A stretch of DNA of 54,355 bases, the filler included, from Basidiobolus ranarum (taxonomy: Eukaryota), in NCBI GenBank assembly GCA_040143965.1. It is 4 parts of 4 records of this genome, joined end to end, with 100 filler letters (N's around TTAATTAATTAA, not from the genome) between each part and the next. Parts side by side here need not be neighbours in the genome. Positions count along the whole stretch, not along the records: positions 1 to 13,562 come from JASJQH010007352.1; 3 more parts are not named here. One strand, given 5' to 3'. Positions 7,600 through 8,169 of this stretch are shown here, piece after piece. Below the pieces are notes generated by a model. That model was not told the DNA's origin and did not search any database. It was given only the letters and a program-made list of their open reading frames with translations. The translations under genes and the position numbers were made by a program. The first letter of the stretch is position 1. Every line of letters starts with the position of its first letter.

Positions 7600-8169
7600 A
7601 AACAGAATGTACTCATCTTGTCCTCCTGGTGCTGATCTGTATCGAATAGGGATAAAAAACAGACCTTTTAAAATTCTAATTCGTACAAAGTATACTTTTA
7701 ACTCGGTTGCAATTTTGATTCAAAACTTCATCAAATATTTCCCCAAACTATACCCTTTCATCCTCAGAACTTCACTCGTCCTTTATCTATTTGAACTTCA
7801 TTCCAACATTCATGGATGCTATTATGCACGAAAAAGTTATCAACAAATCACTGCCCTTAGTTTGTCCATCACATATAGGACATAATATATCCAACACCGA
7901 AACCATCATTTCACACCACCAAACCCTTTCCAAATCACTTTGTGTAATAATATTCTGCATCATGTCTGAAGCACCATGACAAATCAAACAATCCATCTCC
8001 ATCTCCCCAAATCTTAAATCTTGGCTCTTCTCGAAACAGGTTGCCTACTAAACGCACGCTTAGAACCAGATGGTATAGTCTTATCCTTTATTTGATGCAG
8101 AAACGCCAAATAATGTGCCGCTCCTACCAACATAGGACTCTGTACCATGTTCCCATAAATCCCACATAT
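7600..8169 (-). pseudogene. Degraded fragment of a divergent multisubunit-type RNA polymerase (beta/RPB2 C-terminus, possibly running into beta-prime-like sequence); probable virus or linear-plasmid origin
   Basis: Minus strand reads ICGIYGNMVQSPMLVGAAHYLAFLHQIKDK...SRQPVSRRA, frameshift near 8020, then LRFGEMEMDCLICHGAS...QSD..RVWWC...CPIC...ASMNV. This parallels RPB2 [55 protein letters not shown]..C..C..AMNI. Confidence 0.85.

Follow-up and report, generated by a model that had tools for sequence, protein, structure and literature searches.

A decayed RPB2 fragment, probably of large DNA virus origin, between two divergent genes of a fungal genome

The window analyzed here is a stretch of 54,355 nucleotides, filler included, from assembly GCA_040143965.1 (Basidiobolus ranarum), made of four parts joined end to end. 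Its minus strand carries at 7796-8169, between two divergently transcribed genes, the broken end of a gene for the second-largest subunit of RNA polymerase (RPB2). This remnant is likely an inert fossil of an RPB2 of the kind found in nucleocytoplasmic large DNA viruses (NCLDVs). The source would be a fungus-associated lineage with a compact, free-standing RPB2, or a sister of that lineage, and was probably fundsalphavirus- or pithovirus-like. The fossil is a very small further case of the endogenous viral pieces already known in fungi.

Two minus-strand frames (8169-8020 and 8029-7796), designated pieces A and B (Table 1), code for the last ~135 residues of RPB2. The open frame 7790-8044 matches the Pfam family RNA_pol_Rpb2_7 with an E-value of 7.4e-12 and 46.0 bits (cut-off 32.1) over profile positions 3-69 of 87. 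RNA_pol_Rpb2_6 is matched by 8017-8175 under its cut-off of 23.4 (15.2 bits, E 0.012; positions 322-372 of 373). A profile built from 110 full-length related proteins was run over 6900-9000 in all six frames, the stops being masked, and matches just two stretches, piece A with 26.6 bits (independent E-value 4e-10) and piece B with 47.8 bits (independent E-value 1.5e-16). Since the two pieces are colinear and join at one profile position, they are separated by a single frameshift, without an intron. The alignment suggests that the stretch coding for G-R-S-K-G-G-G in the relatives is about 7 nt shorter in the fossil. A whole open subunit gene is absent: only positions 770-904 of the 911 in the family profile are represented, with one frameshift and an incomplete first Cys pair in the zinc ribbon. 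The fossil corresponds to the final ~15% of an RPB2-type gene; it is 380 bp long and intronless and extends over 7796-8169 plus the stop codon at 7787-7789. The tblastn matches of the relatives end at residues 941 of 943 (P0003), 871 of 874 (P0007), 820 of 823 (P0009) and 1044 of 1054 (P0015). The RPB2-like C-terminal motifs, the frameshift and the lack of introns had been recognized in a preliminary description of this DNA, made from the sequence alone, and are borne out by translation, Pfam Rpb2_7 and the family profile. It had also claimed Cys pairs, which is correct for the second (CPIC), while the first is degenerate and down to one Cys. An upstream continuation in the third frame (8084-8230, 'EAILG...EHGTES') was suspected by eye and was discarded, as the family profile does not report it and 8170-8433 has no Pfam match.

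The same description had placed the fossil at 7600-8169 and had read the segment 7600-7789, with its 'DERV*FG' and 'ILKGLFFIPIRYRS' stretches, as beta-prime regions A and B of a fused beta/beta-prime polymerase. The part 7796-8169 stands; the other 190 bp are an over-extension, the beta-prime assignment finding support neither from Pfam nor from tblastn. No Rpb1 or Rpb2 family was matched at E<=10 (Pfam) in the read-through frames of 7400-7789 or 8170-8433. The sole match for the minus frames of 7400-7789, with stops read as X, was an irrelevant SMC_Nse1 (E 0.23), and 7543-7719 gave no Pfam match at E<=1. The RPB1 pieces among 241 open reading frames (ORFs) of five related viral contigs gave no tblastn match at E<=0.05. 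The frame stops where free-standing RPB2 ends and nothing downstream carries an Rpb1-like signal, so that the fusion is not retained.

An exhaustive phmmer search with piece B against 1,835,955,588 representative sequences identified 10 proteins at E<=0.001, all of which contain Rpb2_7. Five of them are whole (823-943 aa, ending in Rpb2_7), one is a partial protein of 595 aa, two are Closterium gene models and two are short fragments, namely an RPC2-like one of 107 aa (P0008) and one of 115 aa whose cluster also holds a 1,054-aa protein. A fused beta/beta-prime form is not among them, each being either a fragment or a protein that ends in Rpb2_7. The Closterium proteins were not kept as close kin because they owe their top rank to tandem RPB2-tail repeats in one gene model. 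These two proteins (P0001, 455 aa; P0005, 258 aa) contain the end of RPB2 domain 6 with domain 7 in two to four tandem copies, which look as if a polymerase-tail fragment had been repeated in the genome of a green alga.

Relatives were then collected with one compact protein, of which the last 264 residues served as query; 7,942 of 8,000 candidates scored at E<=1e-5. The best 120 of these 7,942, which amount to about 110 distinct proteins, are with few exceptions RPB2 proteins 810-1101 aa long that derive from metagenomes or run assemblies, with archaeal subunits at the bottom of those listed. The named relatives among the best 120 belong to Mortierella sp. GBA30, Podila clonocystis and Linnemannia elongata (Mortierellaceae). 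A word-index search for longer proteins, with piece B as query, was uninformative (six candidates, none at E<=0.01), and the IMG/VR scan with P0003 gave 10 pattern matches with no relative among them.

The fossil is closest in sequence to this compact RPB2 family. Summed over pieces A and B, blastp reaches 90-97 bits with the best compact-family members, at 33-48% identity. The corresponding phmmer sums have a median of 55.8 and a maximum of 68.5 for the compact family (n=117), 30.1 and 38.2 for nuclear RPC2 of fungi and protists (n=75), 29.5 and 40.7 for NCLDV RPB2 from IMG/VR (n=80), and a median of 38.5 for archaea (n=7). Piece A separates the groups: its phmmer scores are at most 12.7 bits against the 75 RPC2 proteins and reach 31.4 bits for the compact family. 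Profiles were also built for each group from one alignment and scored against the fragment, read through with an X at the break. The compact family gave 98.4 bits, IMG/VR NCLDV 58.3, nuclear RPC2 57.4, unnamed metagenome rows 53.5 and archaea 47.5. With a profile restricted to the largest compact-family subclade the score was 89.7 bits. Polymerases I and II were compared through chains of the PDB only; they and the polymerases of virus-like elements (VLEs) are absent from the trees and profiles. Against solved structures piece B scored at most 28.1 bits, with an archaeal subunit, followed by S. pombe Rpa2 (26.0), S. cerevisiae Rpb2 (25.7), vaccinia rpo132 (23.5) and S. cerevisiae Rpc2 (18.8), while piece A had no match among the nuclear subunits of the PDB at E<=10. 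The same affinity is seen in individual residues. The fragment and all five compact-family rows shown share the states K-H-Q, S-R-Q-P and GEME-M/Y-D, lack Q-R after Y-Y and have one residue fewer ahead of the S-D motif. The other five rows shown (RPC2, archaeal, IMG/VR) are without those states and have K-H-M, T-R-Q-P and GEMERD instead.

A phylogeny had been proposed as a check in the preliminary description. For this purpose 343 C-terminal sequences were reduced to 124 by a 4-mer redundancy filter and, with the fragment added, gave 125 rows and 142 columns for a quick IQ-TREE run under LG+C20. The fragment lies inside a compact clade of 60 rows that has a Shimodaira-Hasegawa-like approximate likelihood ratio (SH-aLRT) support of 93 and whose stem measures 1.42 changes per column; RPC2 (SH-aLRT 96) and archaea (99) form separate clades. 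After removal of P0067, which had a branch length of 10, a set of 53 rows was assembled from 25 compact-family rows spanning its clades and a random choice of 10 RPC2, 11 IMG/VR, 3 archaeal and 3 metagenome rows. The compact family and the fragment form in this second tree a clade with SH-aLRT 100. The rows nearest to the fragment are P0105, P0122 and P0007, themselves long branches. The maximum likelihood (ML) trees therefore set the fragment inside the compact family, while the approximately unbiased (AU) tests against alternatives, given below, are weak. On these alignments the fragment is best taken as a member or a sister of the sampled compact family, other placements being much worse and 142 columns too few to exclude all of them.

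The genes that accompany compact RPB2 were identified by Pfam on 59 ORFs from five family members with flanking DNA, one from IMG/VR (L001) and four from metagenomes (L084-L087; Table 1). The gene set beside compact RPB2 is an NCLDV core set and not that of a pGKL-type plasmid. Two of the contigs also carry, among the NCLDV core genes, genes for the heterokaryon incompatibility (HET) domain, which is essentially fungal. Their presence hints at viruses with fungal hosts and at gene exchange with them. The abundance of HET-carrying contigs with compact RPB2 in metagenomes and run assemblies suggests a sizeable and barely described group of fungus-linked DNA viruses. On the 15-kb contig L087 a protein kinase fused to Sel1 repeats is encoded at 12074-13306 (-); kinase genes are also described for Coemansia VLEs in the available text of PMC13348850. 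Gong, Zhang and Han (2020) reported endogenous ‘fundsalphaviruses’ from six non-Dikarya phyla, with 14 host species among which is Mortierella elongata (PMC7017919). These elements are near Pithovirus and share D5, D6/D11 helicase, an S-adenosylmethionine methyltransferase, RPB2, RPB5 and the N and C parts of RPB1 (RP1n, RP1c; PMC7017919). The compact-RPB2 family is probably this lineage or close to it. The proposal of a ‘possibly undescribed’ element was too strong, as the gene set of the relatives matches the endogenous NCLDV lineage of non-Dikarya fungi (PMC7017919).

Several results weigh against a viral origin from within this family. The fragment, at 132 aligned residues, is short, its branch is long (1.6-1.7) and its best identity reaches only 41% over 128 columns. 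Nuclear subunits were represented only by RPC2 of fungi and protists and by PDB chains. Grouping the fragment with RPC2 under a single constraint was not rejected by the AU test (difference in log likelihood, dlnL, 10.8; p 0.298), probably because the whole RPC2 clade was free to move beside the fragment. When the compact family was also held together in a second test (LG+F+G4, fast searches), the RPC2 grouping became marginal (dlnL 31.2, p 0.050) and that with archaea and metagenome rows was not rejected (dlnL 37.1, p 0.093). A place just outside the compact family costs a dlnL of 2.5 (p 0.53) and is allowed by the test, so that the fragment may be sister to the family instead of belonging to it. 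The link between the family and fundsalphaviruses is drawn from gene content and a common host species, not from sequence comparison. The fragment is moreover alone. A tblastn search with the 241 ORFs of the five contigs gave a meaningful match at the RPB2 stretch only, the sole viral-type Pfam family on 76 window ORFs of >=85 aa outside the fossil frame was a retrotransposon gag, and none of the viral core genes D5, PolB, RPB1 parts and RPB5 was found in the 54-kb window.

The sister position leaves room for a source in some other unsampled virus or element with a compact RPB2, for example of a different NCLDV order or an unknown double-stranded DNA element of the host lineage. The small cost of the outside position, the 41% identity and the long branches of the nearest rows agree with it. 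We regard it as unlikely since the fragment has the derived residues of the compact family and scores 89.7 bits with the profile of its largest subclade, and because IMG/VR NCLDV RPB2 as a group is rejected (dlnL 42.1, p 0.021 with the family held). A decayed fragment of the host's own nuclear RPB2, RPA2 or RPC2, duplicated into the intergenic region, is very unlikely. Piece B by itself is only moderately discriminating, since the RPC2-like P0008 is among its 10 phmmer proteins with 37.4 bits and 36% identity, and the two AU tests gave no clean rejection of RPC2. However, the nuclear RPC2 profile remains 41 bits short of the 98.4 of the compact family, piece A is hardly recognized by nuclear subunits, and the ML trees do not place the fragment with RPC2. 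Random decay of a nuclear copy would not converge on GEME-M-D, K-H-Q and S-R-Q-P, the states of the compact family. A foreign origin other than a host paralogue, as first proposed, is thereby supported in the form of a dead, intronless piece of a virus-type RPB2-like gene.

The source first suggested for it, a cytoplasmic linear plasmid (a VLE of the pGKL2 type) with a fused beta/beta-prime polymerase, is highly improbable, as judged by indirect comparison with VLEs. The frame of the fossil ends at the natural C-terminus of a free-standing RPB2 and is followed by nothing Rpb1-like, the 10 proteins that the exhaustive search gave at E<=0.001 include no fused form, and the closest relatives are free-standing RPB2 proteins on contigs with an NCLDV gene set. 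The DNA polymerase of VLEs is of the protein-primed type. The contigs of the relatives carry a D5 primase-helicase and DNA_pol_B with exo1, neither of which is listed among VLE genes in the available text of the VLE papers. In the pGKL2 ORF6 product K2ORF6p, as described in the accessible part of PMC6211774, the beta part (1-693) runs into beta-prime. VLEs do leave nuclear insertions in yeasts, called NUPAVs (sequences in the nucleus that come from plasmids and viruses; available text of PMC4431711), they now extend to Mucoromycota and Zoopagomycota, and their polymerases are thought to derive from NCLDVs (both from the available text of PMC13348850). The G+C content of the fossil (39%), compared with the >75% A/T given for VLEs in the same part of PMC4431711, is a weak point against them because old insertions drift to host composition. 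A different question is whether the fossil, whatever its source, was co-opted as a promoter, 5′ untranslated region or short ORF for a flanking gene. Of the 1,129 bp that separate the two start codons it makes up 380, it is oriented in sense to the left gene, from which it lies 485 bp upstream, and neither of its frames (53 and 85 codons) is interrupted by a stop. Such long open stretches are equally expected in a moderately young fossil, and we hold co-option to be quite unlikely.

The preferred reading, a captured piece of a virus with a compact RPB2, would require that a short viral DNA segment entered the nuclear genome between the CoA-ligase-like and the ATP-grasp/TauD genes. Capture may most simply have occurred at a repaired double-strand break, by analogy with NUPAVs as described in the available part of PMC4431711. 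Neutral drift would afterwards have produced the frameshift and small deletions and removed a zinc-ligand Cys, no partner genes being present. We infer that the fossil would be unable to make a polymerase and that it most likely only supplies a third of the 1.13-kb shared upstream region. Its position inside a divergent promoter region was correctly given in the preliminary description, the ATG codons of the flanking genes lying at 7305 (-) and 8435 (+), 1,129 bp apart. The TauD domain of the right-hand gene was identified by Pfam at 10214-10702 (E 1.8e-6); its Atlas similarity of 0.86 to an AnkG_N+TauD cluster is a lead only. A repeat search around the fossil gave short two-copy matches only, with no terminal repeats or target-site duplication that would suggest a transposon carrier. 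The fossil has 7 CpG (observed/expected ratio, o/e, 0.58), whereas a gag-like stretch at 35495-36271 (-) (Retrotrans_gag, E 4e-5) has 0 CpG (o/e 0.0). Retention of CpG, as claimed earlier, is thus correct, at background level (window mean o/e 0.65) and without enrichment. The CpG loss of the retroelement seems to have spared the single-copy fossil, with CpG-directed mutation confined to repeats.

Table 1. Positions of the fossil, its flanking genes and the genes accompanying compact RPB2 in related contigs
Feature	Position or contig	Strand	Remarks
Fossil piece A	8020..8169	-	RPB2 domain 6 end; profile positions 770-821 of 911, compact-RPB2 family
Piece A motifs	open frame 8175-8017	-	H-Q..DK (H..KDK), SRQPV; translation
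Frameshift zone	8020..8029	-	pieces A and B both align to profile position 821
Fossil piece B	7796..8029	-	RPB2 domain 7; profile positions 821-904 of 911, compact-RPB2 family
Piece B motifs	open frame 8044-7790	-	LRFGEMEMDC, HGAS, degraded zinc ribbon, tail ..MNVGMKFK then stop
Piece B stop codon	7787..7789	-	at C-terminal end point of free-standing relatives
Left neighbor: phenylacetate-CoA-ligase-like adenylate-forming enzyme	5988..7305	-	Atlas 0.97; no Pfam match; start codon 7305-7303, 485 bp from fossil
Right neighbor: ATP-grasp-like N-part and TauD dioxygenase C-part	8435..10705	+	at least 1 intron; start codon 8435, 266 bp from fossil
D5_N/DUF5906 primase-helicase	3 of five compact-RPB2 contigs		Pfam
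DNA_pol_B with exo1	L085		Pfam
Split RPB1	N part L001; C part L084, L085		Pfam
Rpb5	3 of five compact-RPB2 contigs		Pfam
Capping enzyme	L086		Pfam
SNF2/DEAD helicases, UDG, DUF5757	compact-RPB2 contigs		Pfam
HET-domain genes	L084 7360-8865; L085 20834-22438	- (both)	Pfam; among NCLDV core genes

The remainder of the window is fungal in character, with a homeodomain linked to a HOY1-type PH-like domain, introns and gag. The homeodomain (E 4e-20) and the TRF2/HOY1 PH-like domain (E 5e-16) share one frame at 23517-25649 (+) and are separated by a single stop codon (24423-24425), which could point to an intron, to a pseudogene or to two genes. At 13610-18994 (-) a frame stays open for 1,795 codons and has no Pfam match at E<=0.001; at its 3′ end it continues into a masked/N stretch, read as X's. 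A 183-aa ORF at 1239-1787 (-) combines a CHAP amidase domain (E 1.1e-16) with a start that resembles a signal peptide. As CHAP domains are mostly bacterial or from phages, this is a possible transferred gene. The isolated metallo-beta-lactamase-fold fragment at 42420-42827 (+), a short frame matched with an E-value of 1.5e-13, probably represents a single exon from a larger gene.

DNA-virus infection in fungi is recorded almost exclusively by endogenous pieces of large DNA viruses. The published endogenous record concerns non-Dikarya phyla (PMC7017919; PMC10640383, available text), and no such elements were found in Dikarya among 1,006 genomes with a DNA polymerase probe (Gong et al., PMC7017919). 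In the accessible part of their work on giant viruses of zoosporic fungi, Myers et al. (2026) treat Dikarya as uninfected and ask for the reason (PMC13533422). Ascomycete hosts have been proposed, on indirect grounds, for two marine NCLDVs (PMC9894930, available text), and searches of the open-access literature revealed no ascomycete from which an NCLDV polymerase fossil has been reported. The eukaryotic Atlas clusters nearest to both flanking genes are commonest in Ascomycota, which gives leads only. Were the host an ascomycete, the fossil could, tentatively, be the first footprint of pithovirus-like fungal NCLDVs with a compact polymerase delivering DNA into a Dikarya lineage and probably infecting it. 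A securely dated fragment in a Dikarya genome would imply a wider host range, and the contact could be dated by presence or absence in related species. With a host outside the Dikarya, the fossil adds one small case to a phenomenon already known.

Among known systems, the pGKL2 ORF6 polymerase (YKP6) resembles the source of the fossil in being a reduced, NCLDV-related, beta-like polymerase module on a non-nuclear DNA element of fungi that leaves nuclear fragments (available text of PMC6211774 and PMC13348850). It differs in that its beta portion (1-693) is fused to part of beta-prime, whereas the fossil ends at the RPB2 C-terminus. NUPAVs, as far as they are described in the accessible text of PMC4431711, are likewise short, degenerate, single-gene pieces of extrachromosomal elements in nuclear DNA and provide the best model for the arrival of the fossil, although they originate from VLEs and RNA viruses of budding yeasts and not from an NCLDV-type virus. 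Mycodnaviridae, the giant viruses of zoosporic fungi, are also NCLDVs with fungal hosts and endogenous copies, but belong to another clade and host group; this separation is made by description and not by sequence (PMC13533422, available text). The fundsalphaviruses are known from multi-gene regions found in six non-Dikarya phyla with DNA polymerase as probe, whereas the fossil is a lone 380-bp piece without viral neighbors. They share with it a viral RPB2 that lies in a fungal nuclear genome and carries frameshifts. The compact-RPB2 relatives of the fossil have, like the fundsalphaviruses, D5, D6/D11-type helicases, RPB2, RPB5, a split RPB1 and PolB, and they include a protein of Linnemannia (Mortierella) elongata, a published fundsalphavirus host.

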